Positions 3,925-56,029 are shown, counted from the first letter of the stretch. The stretch is 64,000 nucleotides of DNA from Vicinamibacterales bacterium (GCA_965215105.1 OZ244051.1:4866896-4930895), one strand, 5' to 3'. Program-made: numbers and translations. The notes: generated by a model from the letters alone, not told the origin.

Positions 3925-4623
3925 CTATGGCGCGGAATCCGCGGCACTGTCGAGGGCCAGCGCGCCGGTGTAGATGGCCATGCCGACGACCGCGTCGATG
4001 CCGGCGGCGTCGAGGGCGTCTATCTCCTCGCGGGTGGTGATGCCGCCGGCCGCGGTGACGCGCCGGCCCGTCGCCGCCGCCACCGCGCGCGCCGCGCCGA
4101 GGTCGGTGCCGGTCATCAGCCCCTCGCGGTCGACGTGGGTGTACAGGAACTCGCCGCAGTACGGCTCGAGCCGCCGCACCGCCTCTACCGCGGTCACCTC
4201 GACTGGCTCGGTCCAGCCGCGGATGACGACGCGGCCGGCCTTGCTGTCGACCGCGCCGATGATCCGCTCGACGCCGACCGCGTCGGCGAGGGAGCGCGCG
4301 AACGCGAGGTCGGGCCGGCCTTCGCGGAAGAGGGCCGAGCTGACGATGACCGCCTGCGCGCCGTAGCCGAGCACCGCCTCGGCGCGCGCGACGGAGCGGA
4401 TGCCGCCGCCGACCCGGCAGGGCAGCCGCGGCGCGACCCGCCGCACCAGCGCGTCGTTGTCGCCCGACCCCATGGCCGCGTCGAGGTCGATGAGCTGCAC
4501 CTTGGGGAACCCGGAGAACCGCGCGACCCACCCGTCGATGTCGTCGCTCTCGATGGCGAGCCGCTCGCCTTGCACGAGCTGCACCACGCGGCCGTTCTTG
4601 AGGTCGATGGACGGGATCAGCAT
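3925..4623 (-). CDS. hisA: ProFAR isomerase HisA
   Basis: 232 aa. [19 protein letters not shown]..., GGGIRS, GAQAVIVSSALF. Sits in the his operon context. Confidence 0.9.
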   Translation of the reverse strand: MLIPSIDLKNGRVVQLVQGERLAIESDDIDGWVARFSGFPKVQLIDLDAAMGSGDNDALVRRVAPRLPCRVGGGIRSVARAEAVLGYGAQAVIVSSALFREGRPDLAFARSLADAVGVERIIGAVDSKAGRVVIRGWTEPVEVTAVEAVRRLEPYCGEFLYTHVDREGLMTGTDLGAARAVAAATGRRVTAAGGITTREEIDALDAAGIDAVVGMAIYTGALALDSAADSAP

Positions 4624-4770
4624 GAGTCCCCGGCCGCCGCGCGCGGCGCGGCGTTCTCTAAGTCGACGGACGGGATCGGCATGGCCTCGGGTTTCGCGCG
4701 GGCGGCGCGGCGTTCCTCGAGGTCGATGGACGGAATCAGCATGGCGTCGGGTCCGTCGCCTCGGGCGGGA
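4591..4770. repeat. about 60-bp tandem repeat (about 3 copies) spanning the hisF stop / hisA start junction
   Basis: The ATGCYGAT-CCGTCC-TCGAC unit starts (minus strand) at 4742, 4682 and 4623. The copy at 4742 overlaps the hisF stop (ATGCTGA). Only the 4623 copy continues as hisA. Confidence 0.85.
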
Positions 4771-5551
4771 CGCCGGCCGCGCGCCCGACCGGCCGCGGCA
4801 GCCGCACGGGGATGCCGTGCGCGTGCAGGTGGGCCTTGAGGTCCTCGACCGCGTGCTCTGCGTAGTGGAATATCGAGGCGGCGAGGGCGGCGTCGGCCCG
4901 GCCCGCGGTGAAGACGTCGACGAAGTGGTCGAAGTTGCCGGCGCCCCCGGACGCGATGACGGGGATGGGCACGGCCGACGACACCGCCGCCGTCAGCTCG
5001 CAGTCGAAGCCCTGCCTGGTGCCGTCGCGGTCGATCGAGGTCAGCAGTATCTCGCCGGCGCCGCGGTCGGCCGCCTCGCGCGCCCACTCGACGGCGTCGC
5101 GCTCGGTGCCCTGCTGGCCGCTGCGGACGTAGATGCGGAAGCGGCCGCCCTCGCGCTTGGCGTCGATGGCGACGATGACCGCCTGGCTGCCGTAGCGCCG
5201 GGCCAGGGTGGTGATGAGCTCGGGCTGGGAGAGGGCCGCGGTGTTGATGCCGACCTTGTCGGCGCCGGCCTCGATGGCCGCCTCCGCGTGGTCCTCCCCG
5301 CGAATGCCGCCGCCGACGCACAGCGGCAGGAAGATCTCGCGCGCGACGGCCCGGATGGTCTCGGCCAGCGCCTTCCGCCCCTCGATGGTCGCGGTGACAT
5401 CGAGGATCACCACCTCGTCTATGCTCTCGCGGTTGTAGCGGGCGGCGAGGGTGGCGGGGTCGCCGGCGTTGCGCAGGCCCTCGAAGTTGATGCCCTTGAC
5501 GACGGCGCCGTCGCGAACGTCGAGGCAGGCGATGATGCGTTTCGACAGCAT
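4736..5551 (-). CDS. hisF: imidazole glycerol phosphate synthase cyclase subunit HisF
   Basis: Start chosen at [20 protein letters not shown] (residue 267 of ORF 4736..6349). CVGGGIR, ASGGAG and ASIFHY motifs. Has a 17-aa non-canonical C-terminal tail. Confidence 0.9.
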
Positions 5552-5655
5552 GGTGATCTCCGGCTGCTCCCTCGCTGCGCCTTGCCGGGCGGGTGTTCCT
5601 TGCCCGCCGGCGCCCTCGCCGATCTCGGCGCCACGCGGGGTTCCACGACGGGCCC

Positions 5656-6291: not shown

Positions 6292-6879
6292 CTACATCAA
6301 TCCCTTGGTGCTCGGCAGGCGCTTCGCCATGCGGTCGTCCTTGTCGCACGCGACCCGCAGCGCGCGCGCGAACGCCTTGAAGATGGCCTCGACCTGGTGG
6401 TGGCTCGACCGGCCGTAGAGCACCTTGACGTGCACGTTGGCCCGCGCCCCCAGCGCGAAGCCCTCGAAGAAGTCGTGCAGCAGCTCGGACTGCAGGTCGC
6501 CGACGAGCCTGACGCGCAGCCGCAGGTCGACCACCGCGTGGGGACGCCCCCCGAGGTCGATGGCGGCGACGCCGAGGGTCTCGTCCATCGGCATGACGAA
6601 GTAGCCGGCGCGGTTGATGCCGCGCCGCGTCCCGACGGCCTTCGAGACCGCCTCGCCGAGGGCGATGCCGACGTCCTCCACGGTGTGGTGCTGGTCGACG
6701 TCGAGGTCGCCGGCCGCGTCGATCCGCAGGTCGAAGGCGCCGTGGCGCGCCACCAGCTCGAGCATGTGGTCGAGGAAGCGGATGCCGGTGCTGACCGCGT
6801 ACCGGCCCTGCCCTTCGATGCCCAGGCGGACGGTGATCTGCGTCTCGGTCGTGCGCCGTTCGATCCTTGCGCGTCTCAT
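6292..6879 (-). CDS. hisB: imidazoleglycerol-phosphate dehydratase HisB
   Basis: Start at [15 protein letters not shown] (residue 22 of ORF 6292..6942). [14 protein letters not shown] and [17 protein letters not shown] motifs. Confidence 0.9.
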
Positions 6880-7058
6880 GGCAGCACCCCGCGGTTGGTG
6901 GCAGCGAGCATCCCGCGGGTCATGGCGGCAACGCCCCGCCACTCGATCGGTGCGCGTCTCGTGGCAGCAGCACCCCGCCGGTCGCGGCAGCCGCGGGCCG
7001 TCGTCGTCCGCGCCGGGGCTCCGCCGCCTGTCGTCGCGACACGCGGCGTCGTCGTCAT
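6861..7058. repeat. degenerate tandem duplication of the hisD stop / hisB start junction
   Basis: cgatccttgcgcgtctcatggcagcaccccgcgg (6861-) recurs as cgatcggtgcgcgtctcgtggcagcagcaccccgccgg (6945-), period about 84 bp. The hisD stop at 7055-7057 overlaps an orphan ATG (ATGA). Confidence 0.7.
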
Positions 7059-8299
7059 CGGCTCCCCTTCACGCGCAGCCGCACCGACTCGGCGTGGGCG
7101 GTCAGCCCCTCCGCCTCGGCGAGGGTGAGAATGGTCGGGGCCAGGGCCTCGAGTCCCTCCCGCGTGATGCGCTGCGCGCTCTGCACCGACACGAAGTCCG
7201 ACGCGCCGAGGCCGCCGCGGAACCGCGCCGCGCCCCCGGTGGGCAGCACGTGGTTCGACCCCGTGGCGTAGTCGCCGGCCGCCTGCGCGGCGTGCGGGCC
7301 GATGAACACGGTGCCGGCGCGGGTGGCGCGCGCCGCGACCTCTTCGTCGAGGCACACGAGGTGCTCGGGCGCGATGTCGTTGGCGAGGTCGACGGCCTCG
7401 TCGAGGGAGCGGGTGACGACGATGACGCCGTTGCGCTCGATGGACGTCCGCGCCGGCCCGTCCGCCGGCAGCCGCTTCTCGACCTGCCGGGCGACGCGCG
7501 CCGCGAATCGGCGGTCGGGGGTGAGCACGACGGACCGGGCGTCGGGGTCGTGCTCGGCCTGCGCGACGAGGTCGGCCGCGATCCAGCGCGTCTCGCCGCG
7601 CGCGGCGACGACGACGATCTCGGTCGGGCCGGCGTGGAAGTCGATGGGGCAGTCGGCCGACACCAGCGCCTTGGCGGCGGCGACCCAGGCGCTCCCCGGT
7701 CCGACGATCTTGTCGACGCGGGGGACGGTGGCGGTGCCGTAGGCGAGGGCGGCGACGGCGTGGGCGCCGCCGAGCCGGAACATTCGCGTGACGCCGGCGA
7801 TGGCCGCCGCCGCGAGGGTCGCGGGGTCGGGGCGCGGGCAGGTCACGACGACCTCGGGCACCCCCGCCACCCGCGCGGGGACCGCGGTCATCAGCAGCGA
7901 CGACGGCAGCGGGTAGCGTCCCGCCGGGACGTAGCAGCCGACCCGCTCGAGCGGGGTCACGCGCTGCTCGATCTCGACCCCCGCGGTGACCGTCGTCCGC
8001 CACCCCCGCGGAAGCTGGCGCCGCGCGATGCGCCGGATGTGGCCGGCCGCGGTGCGCAACGCCGCCCGCAGCTCGGCGGGGACGGCCTCGAGCCCCGCCC
8101 GCATCTCCTCCGGCGAAACCTCGACGGGGCCGTCGAGGCGGTCGAAGCGCCGCGCGTAGCGCAGCAGCGCCTCGTCGCCGGAACGCCGGACCGCGCTCAC
8201 GATACGGGCGACCCGGCGGATGAGGGTGGGGTCGACGTCGTCGCGGCGGTCGACCAGGCGCCGGACCGCCGCCCGATCCGACGAGTCTACGATCTGCAT
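7055..8299 (-). CDS. hisD: histidinol dehydrogenase HisD
   Basis: Start at [12 protein letters not shown] (residue 27 of ORF 7055..8377). [27 protein letters not shown] and [13 protein letters not shown] motifs. Confidence 0.9.
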
Positions 8300-8505
8300 C
8301 GGAGCACAATCCGGTCGATCGGCAACCCGGCGGTGTCCGTCGCCGCCGCATGAAGCCGGACGGCCGGACGATCCCACGAGTCGAAGGTCCGCATCACAGC
8401 ACGATCTCGTTCAGGGGGGCTCGACGATGCCCTCCGCCGCGCCGCCCTGGTCACAACACGATCTTGTTCAGGGGGAACTCGACGATGCCCTCCGCCCGCG
8501 TCGCC
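8300..8505. repeat. duplicated hisG 3' end (57 bp) plus duplicated hisD 5' end (about 95 bp) between hisG and hisD
   Basis: 8394-8450 copies 8451-8505 including a stop (..GATCGTGCTGTGA vs ..GATCGTGTTGTGA). 8300-8394 (ATGCGGACCTTCGACTCGTGGGATCG..) copies the hisD start (ATGCAGATCGTAGACTCGTCGGATCG..). Confidence 0.8.
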
Positions 8506-16918: not shown

Positions 16919-18127
16919 ATGTCAGTCGCGACCCTCGATCACCCGGGGAGCACCGCCGCCGCGGCGCCGCCGGGAATGGCCCGCTCGCGTCTCCGCGAGT
17001 TCGCGCTGCTGCCGCCGCGGCCCGGCTTCGTGTCGCTCGCCGGGGGCCTCCCCGCCCCCGAGCTGATACCGCGCGCCGCCTATGCCCGGGCCCTCAGCGA
17101 TGTCCTGACCGACGACGCCGCCGCGATGCAGTACGGCCCGCCGCACGAGCCGCTCCGCGAGCGCATCGTCGAGCTGATGCGCGAGCGGGGCATCGACTGC
17201 GACCCCCGCCAGGTGCTGCTGACGTCGGGCGCCCAGCAGGCGCTGAGCCTCGCCGCGCAACTGCTCCTGGCGCCGGGGGCCGAGGTGCTCACCGAAGAGC
17301 ACGTCTACGCCGGCCTGCGCCAGGCGCTCCTGCCGTACCGGCCGTCCATCCTGACCGTCCGCACGGACCACGACACCGGCATGGACGTCGACGGCGTCCG
17401 CGCCCTCCAGGCGCGGGGGGCGCGGCCCGCGTTCATCTACGCGATGGCCGACACCCACAACCCGTGCGGCGTCCGCCTCGGCCGCGAGCAGCGCCGGGGG
17501 CTCGCCGCGCTGGCGCGCCGGTTCGGCGTCCCCGTCGTCGAGGACGACACCTACGGGCTGCTGCGCTACGACGGCGACTGGCTGCCCGCCCTGCGCGCGC
17601 TCGACCCCGAGTGGGTCGTCTACGCCGGCAGCTTCTCGAAGATCCTCGCGCCCGCGCTGCGCCTCGGCTGGCTCGTGCTGCCGCCGCGCCTCGCGGCCGG
17701 GGCCGGGGTGCTCAAGGAGGCGGCCGACCTGGAGTGCTCGGCCCTCACCCAGCGCGCCGTCGCCCGGCTGCTGCGGCACGGCTTCGCGGGCCATCTCGAC
17801 CGCATCCGCGCCGCCTACCGGCGCCGGCGCGACGCCATGCTCGCGGCCCTGCGCGACCACTTCCCCGAGGGCGCCCGGTGGACGCGTCCCCCCGGCGGCT
17901 TCTTCGTGTGGGTCGAGCTGCCGCGCGGGCTCGACGCCGACCGCCTCTGCGAGGAGGCGCTGGCCGAGGCCCGCGTCGCCGTCGTGCCGGGGTCCGCCTT
18001 CGCGGTGGCGGCCGGGGCGCCGGCGAACCGCCTGCGCCTCAGCTTCTCGAGCTGCGCCCCCGACGACATCCGGACCGCCGTCGAGCGTCTCGGATGGCTG
18101 CTCCATCGGAGACTGCGCCATGCCTGA
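16919..18127 (+). CDS. PLP-dependent class I/II aminotransferase
   Basis: Start at MSVATLDH (residue 14 of ORF 16880..18127). SGAQQAL, NPCG, YAGSFSKILAPALRLGW (PLP Lys), and a C-terminal RLSFS motif. Confidence 0.85.
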   Translation: MSVATLDHPGSTAAAAPPGMARSRLREFALLPPRPGFVSLAGGLPAPELIPRAAYARALSDVLTDDAAAMQYGPPHEPLRERIVELMRERGIDCDPRQVLLTSGAQQALSLAAQLLLAPGAEVLTEEHVYAGLRQALLPYRPSILTVRTDHDTGMDVDGVRALQARGARPAFIYAMADTHNPCGVRLGREQRRGLAALARRFGVPVVEDDTYGLLRYDGDWLPALRALDPEWVVYAGSFSKILAPALRLGWLVLPPRLAAGAGVLKEAADLECSALTQRAVARLLRHGFAGHLDRIRAAYRRRRDAMLAALRDHFPEGARWTRPPGGFFVWVELPRGLDADRLCEEALAEARVAVVPGSAFAVAAGAPANRLRLSFSSCAPDDIRTAVERLGWLLHRRLRHA

Positions 18128-18264
18128 CCGATTTCCCATTCGCCGCATCGACCATTCCATCGGAGACCGCGCGGTGGCTGACCGATTTCCCATTCGCCGC
18201 ATCGACCATTCCATCGGAGACCGCGCGGTGGCTGACCGATTTCCCATTCGCCGCATCGACCACA
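18103..18264. repeat. 54-bp x3 tandem repeat spanning the aminotransferase stop / hppD start junction
   Basis: The unit ccatcggagac.gcgc......ctgaccgatttcccattcgccgcatcgacca.. occupies 18103-18156, 18157-18210 and 18211-18264. Copy 1 carries ATGCCTGA (start/stop overlap). Copies 2 and 3 carry GTGGCTGA and match each other except for their last three bases (att in copy 2, aca in copy 3). Confidence 0.9.
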
Positions 18265-19340
18265 TCGAGCTTCACGTCGGGAACGCCCGGCAGGCCGCCG
18301 CGTTCTACCGGCACGCGTTCGGCTTCCGCGTCGCCGCCTACCGCGGCCTCGAGACGGGATGCCGCGAGACGACCTCGTACGTCCTCGAGTGCCGGGCGAT
18401 CCGCTTCGTGCTCACGAGCGGCCTCGCTCCCGACCACCCCGCCGCCCGGTTCGCCCATGCGCACGGCGACGGGGTGGCGGTCGTCGCCCTCGAGGTGCCC
18501 GACGCGGCGTACGCCTTCGCGGAGGCGCGCCGGCGCGGCGCGGCCGGCGCGGCCCCGCTGGTCGAGGAGCGGGACGCGCACGGCGTCTTCCGGTCCGCGG
18601 CCGTCCGCGCCTACGGCGACACCGTGATCCGGTTCGTCGAGCGGCGGGGCTACGACGGCGTCTTCGCCCCGGGGTTCGAGCCGCACGGCGCGTCCGAGGT
18701 GCCGGCCGACGACGTCGGCCTCGCCGCCGTCGACCACGTCGTCGCCAACGTCGAGCTGGGCCAGATGGACCGCTGGGTGCGGTTCTTCGCGGAGACGATG
18801 GGGTTCAGCGAGATGCTGCACTTCGACGACGAGGCCATCTCCACCGAGTACTCCGCCCTCATGTCGAAGGTCATGCAGGACGGGGCGGGCCGCATCAAGT
18901 TCCCCATCAACGAGCCCGCGTCGGGCCGCCGCAAGTCGCAGGTCGCCGAGTACCTCGACTACTTCGGGGGCCCCGGCGTCCAGCACGTGGCGCTCGCGAC
19001 CCGCGACATCGTGGAGACCGTCTCGCGGATGCGCGCGCGCGGCCTCGCGTTCCTGCCCGTGCCCGACGCCTACTACGACGACCTCGGGGCGCGCGTCCCC
19101 GCCGTCGCGCCGTACGTCGGCGAGCTCGCCCGCCTCGGCATCCTCGCCGACCGCGACGAGGACGGGTACCTGCTGCAGGTCTTCACCCAGCCCGTCCAGG
19201 ACCGGCCGACGCTGTTCTTCGAGGTCATCGAGCGGCGCGGGGCGAGGGGCTTCGGGCAGGGCAACTTCAAGTCGCTCTTCGAGGCGATCGAGCGCGAGCA
19301 GGCGCGCCGGGGCAACCTCGTCGAGGCGGTGGCGTCATGA
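18120..19340 (+). CDS. hppD: 4-hydroxyphenylpyruvate dioxygenase
   Basis: 406-aa ORF. IDHIELHVGNARQAA, DHVVANVELG, GVQHVAL, LLQVFT, FFEVIERRG...GFGQGNFKSLFEAIE. The first 36 codons are the repeat (DRFPIRRIDHSIGDRAVA x2). An alternative GTG start at 18228 is in copy 3. Confidence 0.9.
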   Translation: MPDRFPIRRIDHSIGDRAVADRFPIRRIDHSIGDRAVADRFPIRRIDHIELHVGNARQAAAFYRHAFGFRVAAYRGLETGCRETTSYVLECRAIRFVLTSGLAPDHPAARFAHAHGDGVAVVALEVPDAAYAFAEARRRGAAGAAPLVEERDAHGVFRSAAVRAYGDTVIRFVERRGYDGVFAPGFEPHGASEVPADDVGLAAVDHVVANVELGQMDRWVRFFAETMGFSEMLHFDDEAISTEYSALMSKVMQDGAGRIKFPINEPASGRRKSQVAEYLDYFGGPGVQHVALATRDIVETVSRMRARGLAFLPVPDAYYDDLGARVPAVAPYVGELARLGILADRDEDGYLLQVFTQPVQDRPTLFFEVIERRGARGFGQGNFKSLFEAIEREQARRGNLVEAVAS

Positions 19341-19386
19341 GCCGCCGCCCGAGGCGGGGACCGGCTCGCCGAAAGGGAGGAACACC

Positions 19387-20250
19387 ATGACCGGCAGGGA
19401 CTTCGACACGTTCAAGGGCACCGTCGAGCGCGAGCTGATGCGCCATCCGGTGGTGACGGACAACGCCTACACCGCGTGGTTCGCCGAGGGCCGCGTCCCC
19501 CTCGACCACCTGCGGCACTTCACCGTCCAGTTCTCGGTGTTCTCCAACCAGTTCCTGCTCGCCGCCCTCAACCGCGTCATCAACGCCGGCACGCTCGAGG
19601 CGGCGCGCGAGAGCAAGGAGATATTGCTGAACGAGCTCGGCGTCATCTACGCCGACGGCGGGCGCGCGGCCGACCGCGAGCGCGCGCCCGGCGTCGCGGG
19701 GCCGACCGATGCCGACCGCGAGGGCGACCCCGCGCTGGTGTCGACCACCGGCACCGTCGACGGCGGCACGTTCCGCTTCCGGGCCGCCCACTTCGAGTGG
19801 CTGCTGCGGTTCGGCGCCGCCCTCGGCCTCGGGTTCCGCGACATGGGCCAGCGCCGCCACGGCGACCCCGGCACCCTGTTCTTCTGCGACGAGCTGTTCC
19901 GGCTCTACGGCAGCAGCGACTACAACGAGGCGATGGGGGCGTCGTTCGCGGTCGAGAACTGGGCCGCCGCGGGGTTCTGGAAGGAGCTGATCCGGGGGCT
20001 CGAGCGCGTCAAGGCCGAGCAGGTCCCGGCCCTGCCCCTCGCGTTCTTCACCTGGCACGACAGGCTCGAGGAGAACCACCGCGAGCACGTCTGGCACGAG
20101 CTGCGGGCCTGCCACGACTCGCCCGCGTTCGAGGGCGACGCGTTCATCGCGGCCGGGGTCGAGATGCTCGACGCGGTGGGGGGGTTCTGGGACGGCCTCT
20201 ACGCCGCGCGGCCCCGGGGCACGGGGGCGGGGCTGCTGGCGACCGCGTGA
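19387..20250 (+). CDS. heme-oxygenase-like (TenA/PqqC/CADD-type) iron-dependent redox enzyme family protein
   Basis: 287 aa, helical. FSVFSNQFL..., NELGV, SFAVENWAA, and WHDRLEENHREH (E/H-rich metal-ligand-like spacing). Confidence 0.55.
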   Translation: MTGRDFDTFKGTVERELMRHPVVTDNAYTAWFAEGRVPLDHLRHFTVQFSVFSNQFLLAALNRVINAGTLEAARESKEILLNELGVIYADGGRAADRERAPGVAGPTDADREGDPALVSTTGTVDGGTFRFRAAHFEWLLRFGAALGLGFRDMGQRRHGDPGTLFFCDELFRLYGSSDYNEAMGASFAVENWAAAGFWKELIRGLERVKAEQVPALPLAFFTWHDRLEENHREHVWHELRACHDSPAFEGDAFIAAGVEMLDAVGGFWDGLYAARPRGTGAGLLATA

Positions 20251-23019: not shown

Positions 23020-23028
23020 GGCTCTGCC

Positions 23029-23197
23029 CTGGCCCGCCAATCGTCGCCTGCGGCTCCGCTCGGCGCCCAACCAACCCTGCCAGGAGTCTGCGCCGTTCTA
23101 CGGCGCAGACTCCTGGCCCGCCAATCGTCGCCTGCGGCTCCGCTTGGCGCCCAACCAACCCTGCCAGGAGTCTGCGCCGTTCTACGGCGCAGACTCC
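23029..23197. repeat. 84-bp x2 intergenic tandem repeat, each unit carrying a perfect 13-bp-stem hairpin
   Basis: Units at 23029-23112 and 23113-23196. Hairpins GGAGTCTGCGCCG-ttcta-CGGCGCAGACTCC at 23083-23113 and 23167-23197. Lies between the brxHI stop and the pyrE start. Confidence 0.85.
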
Positions 23198-27667: not shown

Positions 27668-27811
27668 GCTCGGACATCGCCGCTCTGCCGCGCCGCTGTC
27701 CGCTGAACCCGTCCTTGCAGAGCGCGACGGCTGCTGCATCCGCGTCATTACCGTCCCTGCTGCGCCGCTGTCCGCCCAAACCCCATCCGGGCAGGTAGTC
27801 AGCGCCTCCCG
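27668..27811. repeat. about 72-bp x2 degenerate tandem repeat in the pglZ-brxD spacer
   Basis: ctgccgcgccgctgtccgctgaacccgtcc (27685-27714) recurs as ctgctgcgccgctgtccgcccaaaccccatcc (27757-27788), and the flanks are also similar. Confidence 0.6.
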
Positions 27812-27828: not shown

Positions 27829-30762
27829 CTACGGCGCAGGTTCCCGAGCTTCGTCACCCGAGAGACCGAACTGCGTATCGAGCAGATCGCGGTTCATCTC
27901 GACGGTCTCCGACGACTCGTCGACCGACAGCACCGCGTAGCCGTCGACGTTCAGCACCCGGCGCAGGGCCGACACGATGCCGCCGAGCCGGAACAGCGGG
28001 ACGCCGAGGCTCTCGGCCAGCGCGGGGAGGGTGAGCTTGCCGCCGCGGGCGTCGAGCGCGGCCAGGATGGCCCGGATGCGCTCGTCGGGCAGCGCCGTCC
28101 GCGCCGCCTGCTTGCGCTGCTCGGCGAACAGATCCGTGCCGAACAGGCGGTCGATCCACGTCTCGGCCGAATGGGGCGCCTCCGGCTCCAGAGCCGCGAA
28201 CAGGTCCCCGGTCTCCCCCCGGGGCGGCGGTCGGCGAGCCGGTGCCGCCGGCCGGGGTTCGTTCGCCCCGGCAACCGCGTAGTCGACCGTCCCGCCAGGC
28301 GCCGGCGCCGCGGATGCGGGCGCCGCGTCCGTTCCGCCCCGCCATCGCCACCAGGCCGGCTCCTCCGGCCCGACTTCGCGCCACCCGGCGAGCTGCGCCG
28401 TCGTCTCCGGCAGGGCGAAGACGCCGAGCGGAAGCACCACCTCCTGCGGCGACGCTCCGCCGTGGTAGCCGTTTTTCTTCATGCCGAAGCGGACGCGCTC
28501 GCTCCACGGCGCCAGCAGGCGGCCGCCCTCGGCGACGACGCGCGGACCCTGCAGCAGCACCTCGTCGTCCGCGGGCGGGCCGGCGGCGGGCCGCCAGCGC
28601 TCCGCGCCCCCCTCGGCGACGTCGCGCAGCGTCGTCCCGCGCTCGAGCACGTGGCCATGGTCGCTCGCGAGCACCACGACCCGTCCGCTCGAGCGGCAGG
28701 CTTCGAGCAGGTCCTCCAGGGGGCCGATGTACCGCGCGGTCCACGGGACGGGCACCTGGTCGCCCTTCGCGAGGTGGTCGTCGACGGCGTTGATCACGAC
28801 GCCCACGACGCGGCGGTCGGGGTCGGCGACGGCCTCGGCCACGCGGGGGGAGACGCCGGCCGCGCCGGCTTCGCGCAGGTCGCCCTTGTGAAAGAGCACC
28901 GGCGGTGCGCCGGGTGTGCAGGCCGAGCGCAGGCCGTCGTGCCGGGCGAAGCCGTCCTTCTCCTTCGCGGCGTTCCCGGCGGCGACCGCGCCGCAGAGCA
29001 GACTCGTCCGCGACACCTCGGTCACCGTGGGCAGGGCGGCGACGACCACGGGACGTTCCGGTGCATCCTCCGCCACCAGCTCGATCCATCCGCGCCACAT
29101 CAGGTCGTGCTCGAGCTCGCGGAAGACGGCCATGCTCATCGCGTCGACCACCAGCAGCAGCACCGGCTGCACCCGGGCGAGGGGCGCGACGCACCGGTCG
29201 AGCACCGCCTCGACGCCGAGCAGGCTCCGCTCGTGGGGGCCGGCGCCCGGCCAGCCCGCGAGGAGCCCGCCGAACGCCCGGTTCTCCTGCTCGCGCGCCT
29301 CGTCCGCCCGCTGCGCCAGGGCCGCGTACGCCTCCGCGACGACCGGCGACGGGTCGCCGTCCCAGAGCCGCGCGCGCGCCCGGTCGACGAAGCCGCCCTC
29401 ACGCGCATAGCCGCGGGCGGCCCCGCCGAACGCGCGCGCGGCCGCGGCGTCGCCGCGCCGCCGCGCCGCGAGCCAGCCCGACAGTCGCAGGGCCATCTCG
29501 ACGCCGGCGGCGCGGCGCGGCTCGCCCGCCGCGAGCGCGTGGTCGAGCACCCGGTCCGCGGCGTCCCGCAGCGGGTCCGGAAGCGAAGCGACGGGCGTGT
29601 CGTGGCCGGCATCATGAGTCTGGCGGGCGGTCTGGTCCCGGCCCCCGCCGGCGGGGTCGGCGGCACCATCGGGCTCGCCGACCTCGTGACGCGCCAGCGG
29701 CGCGCCTGCCTCGCCGCCGACGAACGCGGCCAGCTCCCGTCCGAGCGCGGCGAGCCGCTGCTCGAGGGACGCCCGCAAGATCGCGCTCCGCCCGGCGAGG
29801 TCTTCGGCGCCCAGCGTCCGAATCAGGTCGTCGGCGTCGGCGAGCACCGCTTCCACCGCCCCGTGCGGTCCCGGTCCCGTCGCCTCCGCGGAAGGGGCTT
29901 CCGCGGGCGGGGCGAGCCGGCGCCGGACCACCCGCTCCGCCGCGGCCGTCCACCCGCGGGCGAGGGCCGCGTCCAGGTCGTGCAGGCCGAGCAGCGCCTC
30001 CAGCTTGCCCCTGGCCCTGGCCGCCCGTTCGTCGCCCTTTCCGTCGGCGTCGAACAGGACCCGCGCCACGAGGCCGACCGAGACGGTCCGGCGCCCGAGT
30101 CGTCCCGCGCACTCGAGAATCGCCCGCGCCGTGCGCCCCGCGCTGTCCTCCGCCGCGACGGCCAGCCCCGTCCGCACCGCTGCCGGCAGGGCGTCCAGCG
30201 TCCGCACGGGGTCGCCGTCCAGCGCCCACGCGAGCAGCGCCTCGGGGTCGCGCTCGCCGCGCGGGATGCCGGCGAGGGCCTCGAACAACCGGCGCCAGGC
30301 CGTCTCGGCGTCCAGGAACCCGCTCGGCGCCGGGGGGTAGCCGCTCTCGGGCTCCGCGTTGAGCAGCGCCGGCGCCGCCCACTCGTGGCGGTCGGCCAGG
30401 CGCGGGTCGACGTACTGGGCCTTGAACCGTTCCTTCACGAGCTGCCACGCCTCGATCGAGACCAGTTTGCGGCGGGCGAGCCGCGCAAGCACGTCCTCGC
30501 CCAGCTCGGTCTCCGGCAGGTCGGTCAGCACCACGAGCGGCGGACCGTCGGCGCGGAGGTCGACGAGGCGTTCGCGCAACGCCAGCACCGAGCCGCACCG
30601 GGCGACGGGGAGCTCTTCGGAACCGATTCGCAACGCCGGCGGCGCCGTCGCCGCGTCGTCGAGGACCGGCAGGCCGATGCCGATGACGCGCGCGTCCGGG
30701 TACTGCTTGCGGATCGACTCCACCTGGGCCCGTATCTGCACGAACGAGGGGACCCCGGTCAT
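27829..30762 (-). CDS. pglZ: BREX alkaline-phosphatase-superfamily protein PglZ
   Basis: Start at MTGVPSFVQIRAQVESIRKQ (residue 15 of ORF 27829..30804). PglZ core LLLVVDAMSMAVF..., VVVLASDHGHV. Confidence 0.88.
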   Translation of the reverse strand: MTGVPSFVQIRAQVESIRKQYPDARVIGIGLPVLDDAATAPPALRIGSEELPVARCGSVLALRERLVDLRADGPPLVVLTDLPETELGEDVLARLARRKLVSIEAWQLVKERFKAQYVDPRLADRHEWAAPALLNAEPESGYPPAPSGFLDAETAWRRLFEALAGIPRGERDPEALLAWALDGDPVRTLDALPAAVRTGLAVAAEDSAGRTARAILECAGRLGRRTVSVGLVARVLFDADGKGDERAARARGKLEALLGLHDLDAALARGWTAAAERVVRRRLAPPAEAPSAEATGPGPHGAVEAVLADADDLIRTLGAEDLAGRSAILRASLEQRLAALGRELAAFVGGEAGAPLARHEVGEPDGAADPAGGGRDQTARQTHDAGHDTPVASLPDPLRDAADRVLDHALAAGEPRRAAGVEMALRLSGWLAARRRGDAAAARAFGGAARGYAREGGFVDRARARLWDGDPSPVVAEAYAALAQRADEAREQENRAFGGLLAGWPGAGPHERSLLGVEAVLDRCVAPLARVQPVLLLVVDAMSMAVFRELEHDLMWRGWIELVAEDAPERPVVVAALPTVTEVSRTSLLCGAVAAGNAAKEKDGFARHDGLRSACTPGAPPVLFHKGDLREAGAAGVSPRVAEAVADPDRRVVGVVINAVDDHLAKGDQVPVPWTARYIGPLEDLLEACRSSGRVVVLASDHGHVLERGTTLRDVAEGGAERWRPAAGPPADDEVLLQGPRVVAEGGRLLAPWSERVRFGMKKNGYHGGASPQEVVLPLGVFALPETTAQLAGWREVGPEEPAWWRWRGGTDAAPASAAPAPGGTVDYAVAGANEPRPAAPARRPPPRGETGDLFAALEPEAPHSAETWIDRLFGTDLFAEQRKQAARTALPDERIRAILAALDARGGKLTLPALAESLGVPLFRLGGIVSALRRVLNVDGYAVLSVDESSETVEMNRDLLDTQFGLSGDEAREPAP

Positions 30763-30917
30763 GCGCCGTCCTTCCCCACCGCTCGGCGGCCGGAACGTCG
30801 GCATCGCGCGAACGAGGCGACCCCGGTTGTGCGCCGCCCTTCACTATTGCTCGGCGGCTGGGGCGGCGTCGGCGTCGCGCGAACGAGGGGACCCCGGTCA
30901 TGCGCCGTCCTTCTCCC
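30741..30917. repeat. about 70-bp tandem repeat (2.5 copies) spanning the pglY stop / pglZ start junction
   Basis: cgaacgagg.gaccccggt..tgcgccg.cctt starts at 30741, 30810 and 30881. The copy at 30881 holds the ATGA overlap with the pglY stop (30898-30901). The copy at 30741 holds the working pglZ ATG (30762). The middle copy has GTG/ACA instead. Confidence 0.88.
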
Positions 30918-33900
30918 CGCGCCGCAGCTTCCAGGTGATCTCCAGCCGCGCGCCGGGCTCCTTGCGCAGCAGCTCGTCGAGCCCCGCCGTGACCTCGCGC
31001 AGCCGTTCGGCGTCCAGTCCGCCCCGCGAGCCTTGGGGGGTGATGGTGGCGCCGACGCCCGAGCCGGCCGCGCCACCGCCCTCGAGCTGGCCGCCCGTGC
31101 CCCCGCCCCCGAGCTGGTCGCCCGCACCGCCGTCATCGAGCTGGCCGGCCGGGCCACCGCCCTCGAACTCGCCGCCAGCGTCCTCGCGTACGGCGGCCCC
31201 ACCCCGGCCGGTTTCCTGGCCGGCCGGTTGCGAGGGCTCGTCCTCCGCTCCCGTTGCGGGCGGCGTCGGTGTCGGTGTCACCGTCAACGGCGGGCGCGCC
31301 AACAGATTGGCGGCCCGGTGCGCCAGATCGGGAAGCCGGGGGGCGAGCGCCACGGCGTACTCGTCGGCGGCCAGTGCCTCTCGAAGGTCACTCAGAAGAC
31401 GCTGCGCGTCGTCCGCACGGTCGTCCGTCAGCCGGGCGAGCGGCGCGAAGAGCTGCCAATGGGTTCGCTCCAGAGCGTCCACGACCGCGCCCGCCTTGCC
31501 GATGCTCGTCCCCATCGCTTCCAGAGAGGTCGCGGGCTGCGTCTCCGCAAGATTCTCGATCCGCGCCCGGCCGCGAGGCGCGGTCAGCGACTGCACGAGG
31601 GCGCGGCTCGCGCGGGCGGTGCGGAGGCGTTTGGCGTCTTCTTCGTCGATGGAGAAGTCCGCGCCGAGGGCGGCGAGTCGTTCGACCAGCGTGTCGCACG
31701 CGGCGCCCTGCTTCGCCGCTGCCTCGCCGAGCCGCTCCGCCAGGTCGCTCACGTTGCTCGCGTTGCGCAACGGCGACACCGTCAGCCCGAACACCCTTCC
31801 GGCGCGTTCGACGGCGGTGGTCCAGGCTTCCTGCGCGGGCAGCGCCTCTTCGCGAAGCTCGACGTCGTCGGGCAGGTCGTCGAGCTTCGCGGGCCACGGG
31901 CCGCCGTGGCGCCGGAACGCGAGGTTCGCCTGATCCGCATAGACCAGGATGACGAGGTTCGCGGCCGCCGCCGGCAGCCCCATGCGCCGCGGGTGGTCCA
32001 TCGCTTCGCGCAGCTTGCCGACGGTGAGCGGCTTGTCGAGCCGCTCGAAACGGCTGAACCAGTGCCGGCCGACGACGAAATGGGTCTCGCCCATCTCGCC
32101 GAGCCGCAGGGGTACCGCGATCTGCGCCATCGACGGGCGCAGCGGCTTGTCGATGGCGACGCGTCCCTCCGGCTCTTGCACGGCGCGCGACACTTGCTCG
32201 TGCACGCGGCGTAGCGCCGGCGTCCTGACCGACGCGCCGAAGTCGGGGTGCACCGGGTAATGGCTCGCGCAAAGCTGGTCGAACAGGTTCCCGAGCGCCT
32301 CCCGCAGGTTGGCCCGCGCGGGGGGGCGGGGCTCGAACGCGGGATCGAGCGACTGGAAGTGCTCGGCCGGCGGGTGCGACTCGTCGACCGACCCGGGAAT
32401 GGGATTCTCGACGCCGTAGGCGCCCTCCAGGTAGTGGATCAGGCGCTGCCTGAGCTGGCTCTGCTGATTCCGCAGGAGCTCGCGCGCCGACGCCTGATCG
32501 ACCGGCGAGAGATGCGTCGCGAAGTCGCGCAGCCGCTCGCCGGCCAGGACGTGGTCGATGCGGACCAGCGTGCCCAGATCGCGCTGCGCCGAGGGGCTCA
32601 GGAAGGACGGCAGCCAGACCAGGGTCCGCGCCCGCGCGTCGCGCCCGCGGAAGTCGTTGAGCCGCGCGAGGTCGTCGGCCGGGGTATGACCCGGGTCGTC
32701 GAAGGGGAAGTCGATGACCACCTTGCGTTCGTCCCCCCGCGTCGCCAGCGACTCGTCGGGCAGCTCGCGTACGTTGGCGAAGATCACCTCGAAGCGACGC
32801 TGGGTGCCGCGCCACGCCGCGTCGTGGTAGAGCACGAGCTCGTCGCGGTTCTCGATGCCCAGCGCGTCGAACAGGACCTCGCGGACGAGCCGGCGCCGGT
32901 TGCCGGCGTTGTCGTGCCGGCCCGCGCCGGCGAGGATGCCCTCGGTGTCGACGGCCGAGAGCTGCAGGGTGATGACGGGATTGGCGGGATCGTCGCCAAT
33001 GCGGACATCCCCGATCTCGGCCGCCCAGGCGCGGCAGCGCCGCAGTACCTCCTGGCCTTCGCGCCCCTCGATCGGCGTGCGTATCGACCCGTGGTTGAGG
33101 GCCGCGAGCCGCGCCGCGGTCAGGTTCTTCAGCGCGTCGACCTCGGGCGCGAGGGCCGACAGCAGCAGCGTCTTGGCGAGCCGGTCGTCGGCGCGCAGGG
33201 CGCGGGCGGTGCGGTCGTCCCTGGGCCGCGCCGCCGCCTCCGCCTTCGAGATGCCGTGCCGGCCCTCGATGAGCGGCAGCAGCTTCCGGCGGTAGAGGTT
33301 CCGCGCGTTCTCGAAGTGGTGGCGCGCGCCCTCGGTGAACGGCTCGTCGCCCTCGGCGATCGCGTCGAAGAGGTCGCCCACGGGGACGATCTCGCCGAGG
33401 TCGAGCGTGTCCCGCCCGTCGACCAGCAACTGCAGCATCACCTTCAGCGCCGTCCGCTCGCGCTGGAGGAGCGACGACACCGCGACGAGGGTCTCGACCA
33501 GGGCCGGACTGAAGGGATAGACCTTGCGGAACGCGGCGGTGTCGGCGCGCGGGGTCAGCAGCGTCTCGAACACTTCGCGGCGCACCTTCTCGGTCTGCGC
33601 GTAGGCGTCGTCGATCTGCCGGCGCGCCGCCTCGCTCCGCGGGCGCAGCAGCCGGCGCGCGGCGATCTCGGGCAGGTTGCGGTCTTCCAGCGTGATGCGC
33701 TCGAAGCGGGCCTCCCACCACTGCAGCACGTCGGCGAACCCGAGCTGCAGCGCGCCCGTCACCTGCTCGCCCACCAGCTCGCGCAGGTCGCGCTGCCGCG
33801 CCACGAAGCTCACGATGGGGACGGCCCGGCCCGCCGTCTCCGCCTCGACGAGCTTCGAGACCTTCGGCCCCTCCTCGTTGAGGAAGCGGAGGTCGGCGGC

Positions 33901-43075: not shown

Positions 43076-43390
43076 ATGGAGGATGAAATGCAACAGGTTC
43101 ATGAGCGTGACCGCGAACGCAACGACGACAAGCAGCGACGCGATCCGCACGACAAGGGGTTTTCGATCATCGTCAACGGGCGAGAAAAGACCGTCGAGGA
43201 TGAAGAGCTGACGTTCGATCGGGTGGTGGCTCTCGCATTCGACGCTCCGCCGACTGGTGAGTTCATCTGTTTCACTGTCACCTACAGGCGTGCAGGAGGC
43301 CGCAAGCCGGAGGGTACGCTGATCGAAGGCGGATCGGTGAAGGTGAGGAACGGAACGATCTTCAATGTCACCGTCACTGACAAATCGTAG
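43076..43390 (+). CDS. beta-grasp ubiquitin-like protein (single 'Multiubiquitin'-type domain) with charged N-terminal tail
   Basis: FSIIVNGREKTVEDEELTFDRVVALAFD....FTVTYRRAGGRKPEGTLIEGGSVKVRNGTIFNVTVTDKS. An alternative ATG at 43088 sits behind GGAGGA. Confidence 0.6.
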   Translation: MEDEMQQVHERDRERNDDKQRRDPHDKGFSIIVNGREKTVEDEELTFDRVVALAFDAPPTGEFICFTVTYRRAGGRKPEGTLIEGGSVKVRNGTIFNVTVTDKS

Positions 43391-44546: not shown

Positions 44547-44986
44547 ATCAGCCGATGGTTTTGGCGCATGAATTTGTCAGGACCGTTCCGAACGAACTAG
44601 ATGAACGGACACTCTATGTGTCTATGGACTACGCCACGGTGGTGCACACGTGCTGCTGCGGGTGTGGTCGGGAGGTGGTGACGCCGCTGGGCCCTACGGA
44701 CTGGAAACTCATTTATGATGGCGTGTCGATTTCGCTGCATCCTTCGATTGGTAACTGGAGTTTCGAGTGCCGATCTCACTATTGGATCGAGAGGAGTGCC
44801 GTCATGTGGGCTGGTCGTTGGTCTAGAAAGCGAATTGCGGCCGGTCGGGCGCATGATCGGAGAGCAAAAGAGAGCCACTACGGTGGTGTGGGGATGAGTG
44901 CAAAAGGGGACAGAGTCGGGACCGACGCTGGACGGGGCGGGAGATTCTGGTCGTGGTTGTCACAGTTGTGGTCAAGGCGTGGCTGA
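44543..44986 (+). CDS. small Cys-rich protein, DUF6527-like; candidate non-canonical E2
   Basis: 147 aa. HTCCCGCGREVVTPL, LHPSIGNWSFECRSHYWI. ATGA overlap with the E1-like gene. Confidence 0.55.
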   Translation: MNQPMVLAHEFVRTVPNELDERTLYVSMDYATVVHTCCCGCGREVVTPLGPTDWKLIYDGVSISLHPSIGNWSFECRSHYWIERSAVMWAGRWSRKRIAAGRAHDRRAKESHYGGVGMSAKGDRVGTDAGRGGRFWSWLSQLWSRRG

Positions 44987-54142: not shown

Positions 54143-55117
54143 TTGCGGCATGGGCGGGAAGAACGGGAAGCCGTGGCCGGGGCCGGCCGGGGGCGTCCTG
54201 CGGTCGTGGGGGCGGCGATCCTGGGGTTCGTGGCCGTGGCGGTTCTGTCGTCCTGCGCGGGTCCGGGCGCATCGCCGGCCGACCGGGTGCGCGTGTCGGC
54301 GGCGGTCAGCCTGACGGAGCCGCTGCAGCGGGTGGCCCGGGACTTCGAACGGAATGCCGGCGCCGCGGTCGAGCTGAACCTGGCCGGCTCCAGCACCCTG
54401 GCCGCGCAGATTCTGGCCGGGGCGCCCGTCGACGTGTTCGTCAGCGCCGACGAGCGGCAGCTCGACCGGGTGGCGGCGGAATCGCTGATCGACGCGGAGA
54501 CGCGGGTGGTGCTGCTGTCGAACCGGCTGGCGGTGGTGGTGCCCGCGGGTGCCGGGGCGGCGGCCGCCGCCGGGGCCGCGGTGGCGCGCGACCGAGCGGA
54601 CGTGCCGGCGCCGGGGTTCCAGCGCATCGCTGTCGGCGACCCTGGGGACGTGCCCGCGCCGACGTTCCAGGGCATCGCCATCGGCGACCTTGCGGATCTG
54701 CTCGCGCCGGCGTTCCGGCGCATCGCCATCGGCGACCCGGCCGGCGTGCCCGTCGGGGTCTACGCACGCAGTTACCTGGTGTCGCTCGGCCTGTGGGACG
54801 CGCTGGCCCCCCGCATCGTGCCGACCCGCAGCGTGCGGGCGGCGCTGGCCGTGGTCGAGGCGGGCGACGCCGACGCCGGCATCGTCTACCGCACCGACGC
54901 GCGGTCGTCCGACGAGGTCGCCGTCGCGTTCGAGGTGCCGGAGGACGAGGGGCCGGCCATCGCCTATCCCGCCGCGATTCTCGCCGACGCCCCGAACCGG
55001 GCGGGGGCGGCGCGGTTTCTCGCCCATCTCCAGAGCCGGGCCGGCCGCGACGCGTTCAGGCAGGCCGGCTTCATCGTGCCCGACCGCCTGCCGGTCTCCC
55101 GGGCCGCCGCGCCATGA
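54143..55117 (+). CDS. modA: molybdate ABC transporter substrate-binding lipoprotein ModA (start uncertain: TTG 54143 or GTG 54206)
   Basis: Lipobox AVAVLSSCAG, VSAAVSLTEPL, LAGSSTLAAQI, VFVSADE, RIAIGDPAGVPVGVYA, VEAGDADAGIVYRTDA. Confidence 0.85.
   Translation: MRHGREEREAVAGAGRGRPAVVGAAILGFVAVAVLSSCAGPGASPADRVRVSAAVSLTEPLQRVARDFERNAGAAVELNLAGSSTLAAQILAGAPVDVFVSADERQLDRVAAESLIDAETRVVLLSNRLAVVVPAGAGAAAAAGAAVARDRADVPAPGFQRIAVGDPGDVPAPTFQGIAIGDLADLLAPAFRRIAIGDPAGVPVGVYARSYLVSLGLWDALAPRIVPTRSVRAALAVVEAGDADAGIVYRTDARSSDEVAVAFEVPEDEGPAIAYPAAILADAPNRAGAARFLAHLQSRAGRDAFRQAGFIVPDRLPVSRAAAP
54599..54742 (+). repeat. in-frame 48-bp x3 tandem repeat inside modA
   Basis: DVPAPGFQRIAVGDPG / DVPAPTFQGIAIGDLA / DLLAPAFRRIAIGDPA, then the canonical GVPVGVYA. 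Units at 54599, 54647 and 54695. Confidence 0.9.
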
Positions 55118-55375
55118 ACGTTCCCTTCCCGGCCCTCGACCGCGGGAGGGGCGTCACCGACAGTCGAGGCGACCGGTCCATGAACGATGTCCCTTCCGCC
55201 GCCCCGTTCACGGCGGGCATGGCGGCCGTGACCACCGCCGTCATGCCGCTCCCCGGCCTCGTCGAGGCGTTTGTCCCATGAACGACGTCCTCTCGGTCGC
55301 CCTGTTCACCGCGGGCATGGCGGCCGTAGCCACCGCCGTCATGCTGCCCCCCGGACTCGCGGTCGCGTGGCTGCT
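55112..55375. repeat. tandem duplication of the modA stop / modB start junction (66- and 98-bp units)
   Basis: CCATGAACG occurs at 55112 (overlapping the modA stop), 55178 and 55276 (the real modB start). 55180-55277 is a diverged copy of the first about 85 nt of modB. Confidence 0.88.
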
Positions 55376-55937
55376 CGCCCGCCGCCGCTTCCCGGGACAC
55401 GCGGTGCTCGAGACCCTGGTGTCGCTGCCCCTGGTGCTGCCGCCGGTGGCGACGGGGCTCATCCTCATCACGGTCCTGGGGCGGCGGGGGCTGCTCGGGG
55501 GGCTGCTCGAACGGATGGGCATCGAGGTGATGTTCACGTGGCGGGCAGTGGTGGTGGCGATGGCGGTGATGGGCCTGCCGCTGCTGGTGCGCTCGGCGCG
55601 GGCGGGGTTCGAGCAGGTGGACCGGCGTTACGAGCAGATCGCGGCGACGCTGGGGGCGCGGCCGGCGCGGGTCTTCTTCACGGTGAGCCTGCCCCTGGCC
55701 CGGCGGGGGGTGCTCGCGGGGGCGCTCCTGGGGTTCTCGCGGGCGCTGGGCGAGTTCGGCGCGACGATCATGGTGGCCGGCGCCCTGCCCGGCACGCGGA
55801 CCATCGCCGTGGCCATCTACACCTACACCGAGACCGGTCAGGACGCCGCCGCCGCGGCGATGCTGGCGGTGTCGGCGGCCATCGCCTTCGGCGCCCTGCT
55901 GGCCTCGAACCGGCTGGTCGCGCATCGAGCCGCCTGA
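55278..55937 (+). CDS. modB: molybdate ABC transporter permease ModB
   Basis: 219 aa. EAA-type loop ATLGARPARVFFTVSLPLARRG, RALGEFGAT. Confidence 0.9.
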   Translation: MNDVLSVALFTAGMAAVATAVMLPPGLAVAWLLARRRFPGHAVLETLVSLPLVLPPVATGLILITVLGRRGLLGGLLERMGIEVMFTWRAVVVAMAVMGLPLLVRSARAGFEQVDRRYEQIAATLGARPARVFFTVSLPLARRGVLAGALLGFSRALGEFGATIMVAGALPGTRTIAVAIYTYTETGQDAAAAAMLAVSAAIAFGALLASNRLVAHRAA

Positions 55938-56029
55938 CGCCTGTACCGCGTTGACCGGAACGCCTGACGACATCGCTCATCGAGCCGCCTGACGCCAGTA
56001 CGACCATGATCGGAACGCCTGACGACAAT
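55920..56029. repeat. 55-bp x2 tandem duplication of the modB stop / modC start junction
   Basis: gcgcatcgagccgcctgacgcctgtaccgcgTTGaccggaacgcctgacgac, then gctcatcgagccgcctgacgccagtacgaccATGatcggaacgcctgacgac. Confidence 0.85.

Follow-up and report, generated by a model that had tools for sequence, protein, structure and literature searches.

Locus-specific tandem duplications at operon junctions of a Vicinamibacterales bacterium and the reading frames that cross them

Introduction

In a 64,000-nt stretch of a Vicinamibacterales genome (Acidobacteriota; GCA_965215105.1, OZ244051.1:4866896-4930895; 70.7% GC), referred to here as the window, tandem duplications of 48-99 nt occupy seven operon junctions; to these are added an eighth, weak case, an in-frame duplication within modA, and one further junction, the tenth. 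The units are arranged head to tail and each is specific to its locus, as in minisatellites or variable-number tandem repeats (VNTRs); the arrays are locus-specific junction minisatellites. Across related genomes, 31 of 36 expanded junctions read as an intact chain of short open reading frames (ORFs) that leads from the stop of the upstream gene to the start of the downstream one, a pattern which suggests, as far as sequence can tell, that the neighbouring genes are under strong selection to remain translationally coupled. The explanation we favour, and hold to be probable, is that short tandem duplications are in excess throughout the clade, and that selection lets through those that leave both genes, and the hand-over of ribosomes between them, intact. 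An earlier note on this DNA had listed nine sites, of which seven junctions and the modA case stand; the pglZ/brxD site is weak, and the junction between hppD and the next gene (19337-19390) had been overlooked.

Results

Anatomy of the arrays

Pfam assigns the genes concerned to a minus-strand his operon (hisI-hisG-hisD-hisB-hisH-hisF-hisA), an aminotransferase gene followed by hppD, a BREX cluster (pglX, pglY/brxC-like, pglZ, brxD) and modA-modB-modC, in agreement with the gene names given in the earlier note. Repeats were called by Tandem Repeats Finder (TRF) and by an independent direct-repeat search, and the two agree on the long-period arrays. The sites, in order along the window, are:

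4587..4753, minus strand: hisF/hisA array; TRF 59 nt x2.8, three copies of a 59-60 nt unit
6876..7058, minus strand: hisD/hisB junction; 175-nt spacer with decayed copies (~75% identity) of the hisB start and the sequence upstream of it
8287..8505, minus strand: hisG/hisD junction; 57-nt duplication of the hisG tail (8394-8505, x1.9) and an older 98-nt duplication
18102..18262, plus strand: aminotransferase/hppD array; 54 nt x3.0, later copies 91-93% identical to copy 1
19337..19390, plus strand: junction of hppD and the next gene; relay ORF of 17 codons, joining the ATGA of the hppD stop to that of the next start (19387)
27674..27782, minus strand: pglZ/brxD junction, weak; two related pieces, 72 nt from each other, with an ATG after each (27748, ~27676)
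30741..30920, minus strand: pglY/pglZ array; 71-nt unit x2.6 across ATGA
31050..31184, minus strand: in-frame repeat inside pglY; 27 nt x4.4
54588..54752, plus strand: in-frame repeat inside modA, solute-binding domain; 48 nt x3.4, FQRIAIGDP..VP segment repeated
55114..55359, plus strand: modA/modB junction; ccATGAacg three times (55114, 55180, 55278), units of 66 and 98 nt
55918..56027, plus strand: modB/modC array; 55-nt unit x2, consisting of the modB tail, a 13-nt gap and the initial 22 nt of modC

At the hisF/hisA junction, the unit comprises the final ~24 nt of hisF and the initial ~36 nt of hisA. The hisF stop (TGA, 4736-4738) lies inside an ATGCTGA and the true hisA ATG is at 4621-4623; between them, a 41-codon relay ORF (4617-4742) runs from the hisF stop to the TGA of the hisA ATGCTGA, and is also contained, as a 41-residue product, in the public gene call. 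A 60-codon relay ORF crosses the hisD/hisB spacer in the same manner; it opens on the ATGA of the hisD stop (7055-7058) and closes on that of the hisB start (ATG 6877-6879). At the hisG/hisD junction, where hisG stops at 8451-8453, the older 98-nt duplication covers a TGATG and has left a decoy TGATG at 8392-8396, which is not the hisD start; the real start codon, which begins at 8299 (ATG 8297-8299, in the context CGATG; protein MQIVDSS...), is the one in the public gene call. Here the relay ORF has 35 codons and extends from the ATG at 8394 to a TAG at 8287-8289, formed by the rare valine codon GTA.

On the other strand, ATGCCTGA occupies 18120-18127 in the aminotransferase/hppD array, and copies 2 and 3, which differ from each other by a single base, have GTG (18174, 18228) rather than ATG; the array is in frame, such that the ATG at 18120 would add 36 residues to the N-terminus of HppD. 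The modA/modB junction, where TRF places an array of 98 nt x1.9 at 55178-55359, is bridged by a 55-codon relay ORF (55114-55281) that links the modA stop with the ATGA of the modB start, and the modB/modC array by one of 13 codons (TTG 55951 to TGA 55990-55992), which recreates the original stop-to-start geometry before the modC ATG at 56006. In the BREX cluster, pglY stops at 30898-30900 and the true pglZ ATG is at 30760-30762; the ATGA of the middle copy has decayed to ACAA, and the decoy ATG reads through pglZ out of frame, making this one of the few broken relays. The pieces at pglZ/brxD are 85% identical over 26 nt, related over roughly 38 nt, and their ATGs are in frame with brxD. Read in this way, the sequence confirms what the earlier note had said of the general layout, namely that the upstream stop overlaps the start in the first copy (ATGCTGA, ATGA, ATGCCTGA) and that the working start is in the last.

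Two of these arrays call for separate comment. In that of hppD, copies 2 and 3 (18168-18177) differ from copy 1 (18114-18123) by four changes within the 10 nt around the decoy start, CTGCGCCATGCC versus CCGCGCGGTGGC, which turn ATG into GTG, the rest of the 54 nt being identical; the cluster could reflect selection on the decoy start or a multi-nucleotide event. The 48-nt duplication in modA repeats the conserved IAIGDP..VP segment within the ModA fold, and a relative (L164 8644-8795) has another in-frame array (54 nt x2.8) in the 5' region of the same gene.

Authenticity, origin and placement of the repeats

Three independent short-read (SPAdes) contigs from other samples reproduce the his region of the window, arrays included, at 99.8-99.9% identity with at most one gap, which settles for these arrays the question of assembly or polishing artefacts that the earlier note had raised; homologous arrays are also present in metagenome-assembled genomes (MAGs) of independent studies. 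The placement of the arrays is far from random: of the eight long-period arrays in the window, six touch co-directional junctions, whereas 20,000 random placements gave 0.74 on average and at most 5 (P < 5e-5).

When ten units were aligned locally, all against all, no pair outscored the best of its 200 shuffles, and the units of different loci are thus unrelated, as had been noticed before. What the junction units do align to are the adjoining gene ends, the tail of the upstream gene and the head of the downstream one; they are GC-rich, and the identity between copies spans from 100% to under 70%. Since relatives with a single copy carry exactly such overlaps (ATGCTGA, TGATG or ATGA), a tight overlap of stop and start is the ancestral state. 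Of the window's junctions that were tight originally, about one third have been expanded. The other ~6 kb of non-coding DNA in the window hold no home-made arrays, and the tight 4-nt overlaps at 41-46 kb, in the lower-GC part (60-64%) of a putative island described below, are free of arrays as well.

Reading frame across the expanded junctions

The window HisD has its best matches in metagenome-assembled Vicinamibacterales: nine loci (L001-L008 and L012) at 83-96% amino-acid identity, and about 70 more distant ones. A second set, with ModB homologues (L164-L172), is at 89-93.5% nucleotide identity to the window, by which measure its source genomes are sister species of the window genome and not strains. 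A scan of metagenomes with ModB gave relatives that are all at no more than 85% amino-acid identity and have almost no arrays; these serve as background and are not counted in the clade. Exact-protein look-ups with the window ModB, ModC and the gene after hppD returned no recorded match.

Read from the start codon that overlaps the upstream stop, expanded spacers resolve into one to three ORFs, each of which ends on, or within a few nt of, the next start; the final ORF leads to the true start. Within the window, these relay ORFs have 41 (hisF/hisA), 60 (hisD/hisB), 55 (modA/modB), 13 (modB/modC), 17 (hppD/next gene) and 35 codons (hisG/hisD). A census of 36 expanded junction states, from seven junction families in 16 loci of related genomes, gave:

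Intact chain: 31
In-frame extension: 1
Out of frame: 2
Broken: 2

A random indel of 1-2 nt leaves 26% of the same spacers intact, so that the binomial probability of the observed number is 9e-14 (9e-11 against one third), values which are optimistic since the 36 states share ancestry and stem from perhaps 15-20 independent events, the bias still being significant. The hisD/hisB junction is the clearest case: spacers of 34, 37, 73, 79, 100, 178, 229, 256 and 304 nt are all 1 mod 3, and each forms one open frame, of up to 102 codons, from ATGA (GTGA in L005) to ATGA; the sole exception is a 24-nt spacer in L008. At modA/modB, chains are intact in spacers of 73, 127, 163, 219, 291 and 369 nt. The aminotransferase/hppD junction follows the other route, in that all four independent duplications hold the first ATG in the frame of hppD; even in L165, where the unit is 61 nt, a 1-nt deletion offsets it and the frame is retained. 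Where arrays are clearly intragenic, every period is divisible by 3 (24, 27, 33, 36, 48, 51, 54).

In the window and in L001, L002 and L003, the hisD-proximal TGATG has decayed to CGATG and codon 4 of hisD is GTA, which accounts for 1.6% of valine codons; it makes the TAG that closes the relay ORF 10 nt into hisD, whereas genomes that keep the TGATG have ATC there. From these sequences, the GTA looks like a compensatory change.

Relay ORFs also surface in public gene calls as hypothetical small proteins (L081 7988-8113; L164 2647-2775 and 9778-9930; L167 9631-9930; L169 9873-10004), hppD is called at 370-420 residues, and the called lengths of hppD and modA vary with the arrays. Together, these calls make up a systematic annotation artefact in the clade.

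Density and recurrence in the clade

Counted as non-overlapping arrays with a period of at least 30 nt, array density is as follows:

Clade sequence: 349 kb, 33 arrays, 9.5 per 100 kb
Other Vicinamibacterales his loci: 1.32 Mb, 22 arrays, 1.7 per 100 kb
Other Vicinamibacterales his loci, subset with GC of at least 70%: 3.0 per 100 kb
Metagenome mod loci: 0.64 Mb, 3 arrays, 0.5 per 100 kb

The trait is thus commoner in this lineage, as the earlier note had surmised (9.5 versus 0.5-3 arrays per 100 kb elsewhere). The three his junctions measure ~70-300 nt in most members of the clade, and mostly less than ~60 nt elsewhere, where the genes are adjacent.

The same junctions are affected time and again, with different units. 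At hisF/hisA, the 59-60 nt unit (-24 to +36 around the ATG) is present in three copies in the window and in four in L001; L003 has a unit of ~95 nt, L004 and L006 have one of 50 nt (-5 to +45), and L005, L007 and L012 have a single copy, for a range of 1-4 copies across species. The aminotransferase/hppD units are 54 nt x3 in the window, ~60 nt in L165, 15 nt in L164 and 150 nt x2 in L171. At modB/modC, the window has its 55-nt unit and L171 an expansion of twice that size; L165 carries an unrelated duplication of 74 nt, and the genes overlap by 4 nt in L166 and L169; these last two also have a 4-nt overlap between hppD and the next gene, where other relatives have spacers of 124-255 nt. Copies at modA/modB number 1, 2, 3, 5 or more across species, and L001 has an array of 117 nt x3 across a gene start. 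Duplications are also found where a DUF8091 gene faces a convergent gene with its 3' end, again with differing boundaries (80 nt x2 in L165, 100 nt x2 in L167, 93 nt x2.9 in L171). Judged by their differing unit boundaries, the junctions have been duplicated independently more than once. Copy number varies between species at 89-93% identity; in the his region, which is what the strain-level comparison covers, three strains at 99.8-99.9% identity have the arrays in the same copy number, so that polymorphism between strains, which typifies VNTRs, is not seen there.

A 108-nt array in L003 proved a false positive, being an ordinary Sel1-like protein repeat. Other junction insertions in relatives are of a different make. 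In L009 (13297-13452) and L010 (4398-4553), at 75-76% HisD identity and 65% GC, a 109-nt insertion at hisF/hisA has runs of the heptamer CAGAAGK and their reverse complement at its bounds, and forms one ORF that ends on a stop overlapping the hisA start. The hisB/hisH junction, which has just 12-28 nt in the window and in other relatives, carries insertions of 124-227 nt in L002 (5078-5300), L004 (11970-12128), L005 (12105-12234) and L006 (12132-12252); these match neither one another nor other fetched sequence, and that of L002 has an internal 23-nt direct repeat.

A hairpin element and a putative defence island

One array of the window, 84 nt x2 at 23028-23201, was set aside as a junction array, being instead a dispersed hairpin element. 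Its two tandem copies lie 13 nt upstream of a phosphoribosyltransferase gene and form two hairpins (-49 kcal/mol, z = -4.9). The element recurs in L001 (4739-4808, within the hisG/hisD array) and in L046 (6323-6403; 66% HisD identity), with fragments in L006, L007, L008 and L034; it has no Rfam match and looks like a REP- or MITE-like element of Vicinamibacterales. In L001 it is flanked by hisG/hisD copies, and at this place the window retains just 6 nt, CCAGGG, which would fit a later deletion of the element. The thought that the arrays might be target-site duplications of this element was rejected as a general cause, since L002, L004 and L006 have the same 98-nt duplication without it.

L171, the closest relative at the mod locus, lacks most of the window between ~23.3 and 53.4 kb, with an alignment there at 35224-35998 only. 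This region holds a DEAD/Lhr-like helicase, the BREX cluster (brxD, pglZ, pglY-like and the pglX methylase), nucleotidyltransferase-family genes, a DDE transposase (39623-40780), a ThiF/DUF6791 and DUF6527 pair (43365-44986), two Fic proteins and a NERD-kinase of 1424 residues; at 36-46 kb, GC content is down to 60-67%. The region has the appearance of a defence and mobile island.

Discussion

How the arrays could arise and persist

The favoured explanation runs as follows. Short tandem duplications of 15-150 nt are unusually common in the clade. When the duplicated stretch includes both the stop of a gene A and the start of the gene B behind it, neither gene would be damaged, since A can end in the first copy and B begin in the last; junction duplications would survive because both genes stay intact, whereas out-of-frame duplications inside genes would be purged. 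Each extra copy would then present a decoy start of B fused to the tail and stop of A. Given the right unit length modulo 3, these would line up as a chain of one to three mini-ORFs, whose starts lie on the preceding stops, and ribosomes ending A would reach B through termination-reinitiation, just as at the 4-nt overlap from which the array arose; with a unit that is a multiple of 3, the decoy start would extend B at its N-terminus. Duplications that throw ribosomes out of frame across the start of B should be rare. Later, arrays would gain and lose units and decay by substitution while keeping the frame, and they would resist erosion by imprecise deletion, leading to their accumulation at tight junctions. 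The mini-ORFs are probably translated and may well mediate the coupling, to judge from their frames, and the process as a whole was presumably near neutral.

Coupling enters this argument through the length of the spacers. In E. coli and Haloferax, an untranslated spacer of ~20 nt nearly abolishes termination-reinitiation (PMC10666635); untranslated spacers of 60-300 nt would therefore uncouple the genes, and spacers that preserve coupling must stay translated. The earlier note held that the arrays pull apart coupled genes: physically they do separate them, but the genes are probably not uncoupled, as 31 of 36 spacers restore the overlap of stop and start at each hop. For the same reason its suggestion of selection for uncoupling is better reversed, since the chains, the 1 mod 3 rule at hisD/hisB and the in-frame arrays before hppD bear the signature of coupling being kept. 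That similar duplications occur at gene ends in convergent junctions, and in frame inside genes, argues for a general process with subsequent filtering, and that the same junctions were affected repeatedly points to a high rate.

Several observations weigh against this account. The junctions pglY/pglZ and, in L008, hisD/hisB are out of frame, hppD/next gene is broken in L171, and the hisG stop of the window has no adjacent start. Shine-Dalgarno strength does not separate junction starts from other starts: those downstream of arrays are like the rest, which says little, because Shine-Dalgarno-like sequences are weak or absent before most genes of the window, the first genes of operons included, such that initiation in this organism may depend little on this pairing. 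The shared ancestry of the census states has been mentioned; in addition, the relatives' loci were picked because the window had arrays, which inflates the recurrence and perhaps also the clade density, and the clade exceeds other Vicinamibacterales loci by no more than ~3-fold when these have a GC content of at least 70%. Finally, mere permissiveness fails as an explanation, since the home-made extragenic arrays are all at ancestrally tight co-directional junctions; this confinement calls for the argument from persistence, for positive selection or for a hotspot. Longer persistence, positive selection and a hotspot may each contribute to the placement of the arrays, as they are not mutually exclusive. 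Persistence would follow if the junctions tolerate no deletions other than unit-precise or in-frame ones.

As to the cause, slippage or a repair bias, as proposed in the earlier note, may be at work. Junctions in the youngest arrays are blunt, with microhomology of 0-3 nt, and in the youngest of all, at the DUF8091 3' end of L167 (4593-4792), two 96-nt copies, 100% identical, are joined by GCCT, a filler that matches neither flank. By their sequence, the junctions of young arrays resemble end-joining with filler more than direct-repeat slippage, although one clean case is too few. Tandem duplications of a few to ~100 nt are known from duplication mutators such as rad27/FEN1-deficient yeast and from end-joining of staggered nicks. 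Those of the rad27 type are flanked by direct repeats of 3-12 nt; the young arrays here differ from them in their 0-3 nt of microhomology and, in one case, the 4-nt filler. A bolder version of the account, which we put forward tentatively and would not bet on, joins a clade-specific mutational process (e.g. end-joining of staggered breaks, or altered flap processing) to arrays that act as a working layer of mini-ORFs and set the delivery of ribosomes. If true, the gain and loss of units would make operon stoichiometry evolvable. The density observed here extrapolates to several hundred arrays per genome.

Alternative explanations

The alternative that survives best, while remaining rather unlikely in our view, is adaptive tuning, in which relay ORFs are positively selected because they retune or attenuate the delivery of ribosomes downstream, with copy number as an evolvable rheostat; in a variant, the expansion might free the C-terminus of the upstream gene and the start region of the downstream one from the constraint of their overlap. 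The expansion of about one third of the tight junctions, set beside non-coding DNA devoid of home-made arrays, would fit this, as would the repeated events at the same junctions in sister species and the variation in copy number between them. But the constancy of copy number among the three strains shows that these are not fast contingency loci; old copies decay freely, to 67-80% identity, with the frame alone retained; and like duplications exist at a convergent gene end, that of the DUF8091 gene in L165, L167 and L171, where there is no coupling to tune.

A mutational hotspot, by which duplications arise preferentially at gene boundaries through transcription-replication conflicts, R-loops or local features of start regions, is less likely again. 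It would account for the number of independent events per junction (three at hisF/hisA, four at aminotransferase/hppD, two or three at the DUF8091 3' end) and for the lack of home-made arrays in non-coding DNA off operon junctions. Yet duplications of the same size occur in frame inside genes (modA, pglY and others in relatives), the units share no sequence motif, the tight junctions of the lower-GC island at 41-46 kb are without arrays, and the mod-3 and frame bias is a mark of selection, which a hotspot alone would not leave.

Regulatory RNA or DNA elements, such as processing sites, stabilising hairpins or protein-binding arrays, have a precedent in the intergenic tandem repeats of Borg elements, proposed to be regulatory RNAs; we regard this as very improbable here, because the spacers fold no more stably than their shuffles (z -1.6 to +0.6), Rfam and tRNA searches across the window gave zero matches, and sequence decays where frame is conserved. 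A dispersed mobile element of the MIRU, REP or MITE type, inserted at junctions, can be regarded as refuted for these arrays. MIRUs are described with this same position and ORF-overlap geometry, and the clade does have its 84-nt hairpin element, one copy of which is inside the hisG/hisD array of L001; however, units of different loci share no sequence, each copies the adjoining gene end and start, and the 84-nt element is unrelated to them, with relatives of L001 having the array and lacking the element. An assembly or polishing artefact, or chance similarity in GC-rich DNA, can be dismissed for practical purposes: several relatives are long-read assemblies, which are error-prone at tandem repeats, but the copies differ by up to ~33% and offer no long identical stretches to mislead an assembler, and the short-read contigs from three samples, the independent MAGs and the permutation result all speak against it.

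Relation to known repeat systems

Taken as minisatellites, the arrays have counterparts in the ETR and QUB loci of M. tuberculosis, which are locus-specific VNTRs. As in those, the repeats are home-made and tens of nt long, intragenic periods are divisible by 3 and lineages differ in copy number; unlike VNTRs, the his arrays are invariant here among strains at 99.8-99.9% identity. We know of no account of ETR/QUB-type VNTRs in which the repeats systematically straddle stop and start or keep a relay frame.

The likeness to mycobacterial MIRUs drawn in the earlier note is apt. MIRU units of 40-100 nt lie in tandem between co-transcribed genes, with small ORFs that overlap the flanking stop and start, and have little effect on expression; their tolerance in operons is attributed to ribosomes being passed along the unit ORFs (PMC12548453). 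The arrays share the location in operons, the unit ORFs overlapping stop and start (31 of 36 states) and copy numbers that vary between lineages, with periods of 30-150 nt. They are distinct in that MIRUs form one dispersed, apparently mobile family, whereas every locus here has its own unit copied from the adjacent genes, and in that the host is an acidobacterium instead of a mycobacterium. REP, BIME and MITE sequences, being dispersed and forming stable hairpins, are unlike the junction spacers; the 84-nt element has both properties.

With Borg elements (PMC9879509) the arrays have in common a genome-specific tendency to many independent, locus-specific repeats, and in-ORF periods divisible by 3. 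Borg repeats are A-rich, essentially perfect, often accompanied by flanking partial repeats, and not reported to bridge stop and start (PMC9879509); the units here are GC-rich, range from 100% to below 70% identity and are tied to operon junctions, and so are not repeats of the Borg kind. A functional parallel is termination-reinitiation coupling at -4/-1 overlaps (PMC6728339, PMC10666635), the geometry of which (ATGA, TGATG or ATGCTGA) is recreated at each hop, stop and start overlapping or lying a few nt apart; known coupling connects two real genes, whereas here up to three non-functional mini-ORFs built from gene fragments are interposed. Literature searches returned no prior account of junction-derived duplications with relay ORFs, nor of tandem repeats in Vicinamibacterales.

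Implications

The arrays amount to a natural test of coupling, in which dozens of insertions of 30-370 nt between coupled genes survive almost solely when the overlap is rebuilt at each step. They provide comparative evidence, from uncultured soil bacteria, that termination-reinitiation coupling is strongly selected in ordinary biosynthetic and transport operons, and they show that a MIRU-like layout is possible without a mobile element, which bears on the origin of MIRUs. For annotation, the arrays are a source of spurious small genes and wrong start codons; for ecology, they could serve as species-level markers in an abundant soil group. The clade is, moreover, a lineage with an unusual load of duplications, the repair or replication basis of which could be sought in differences of gene content from outgroups. 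The arrays should hence be of interest for the study of translational coupling, operon evolution and bacterial mutational processes.

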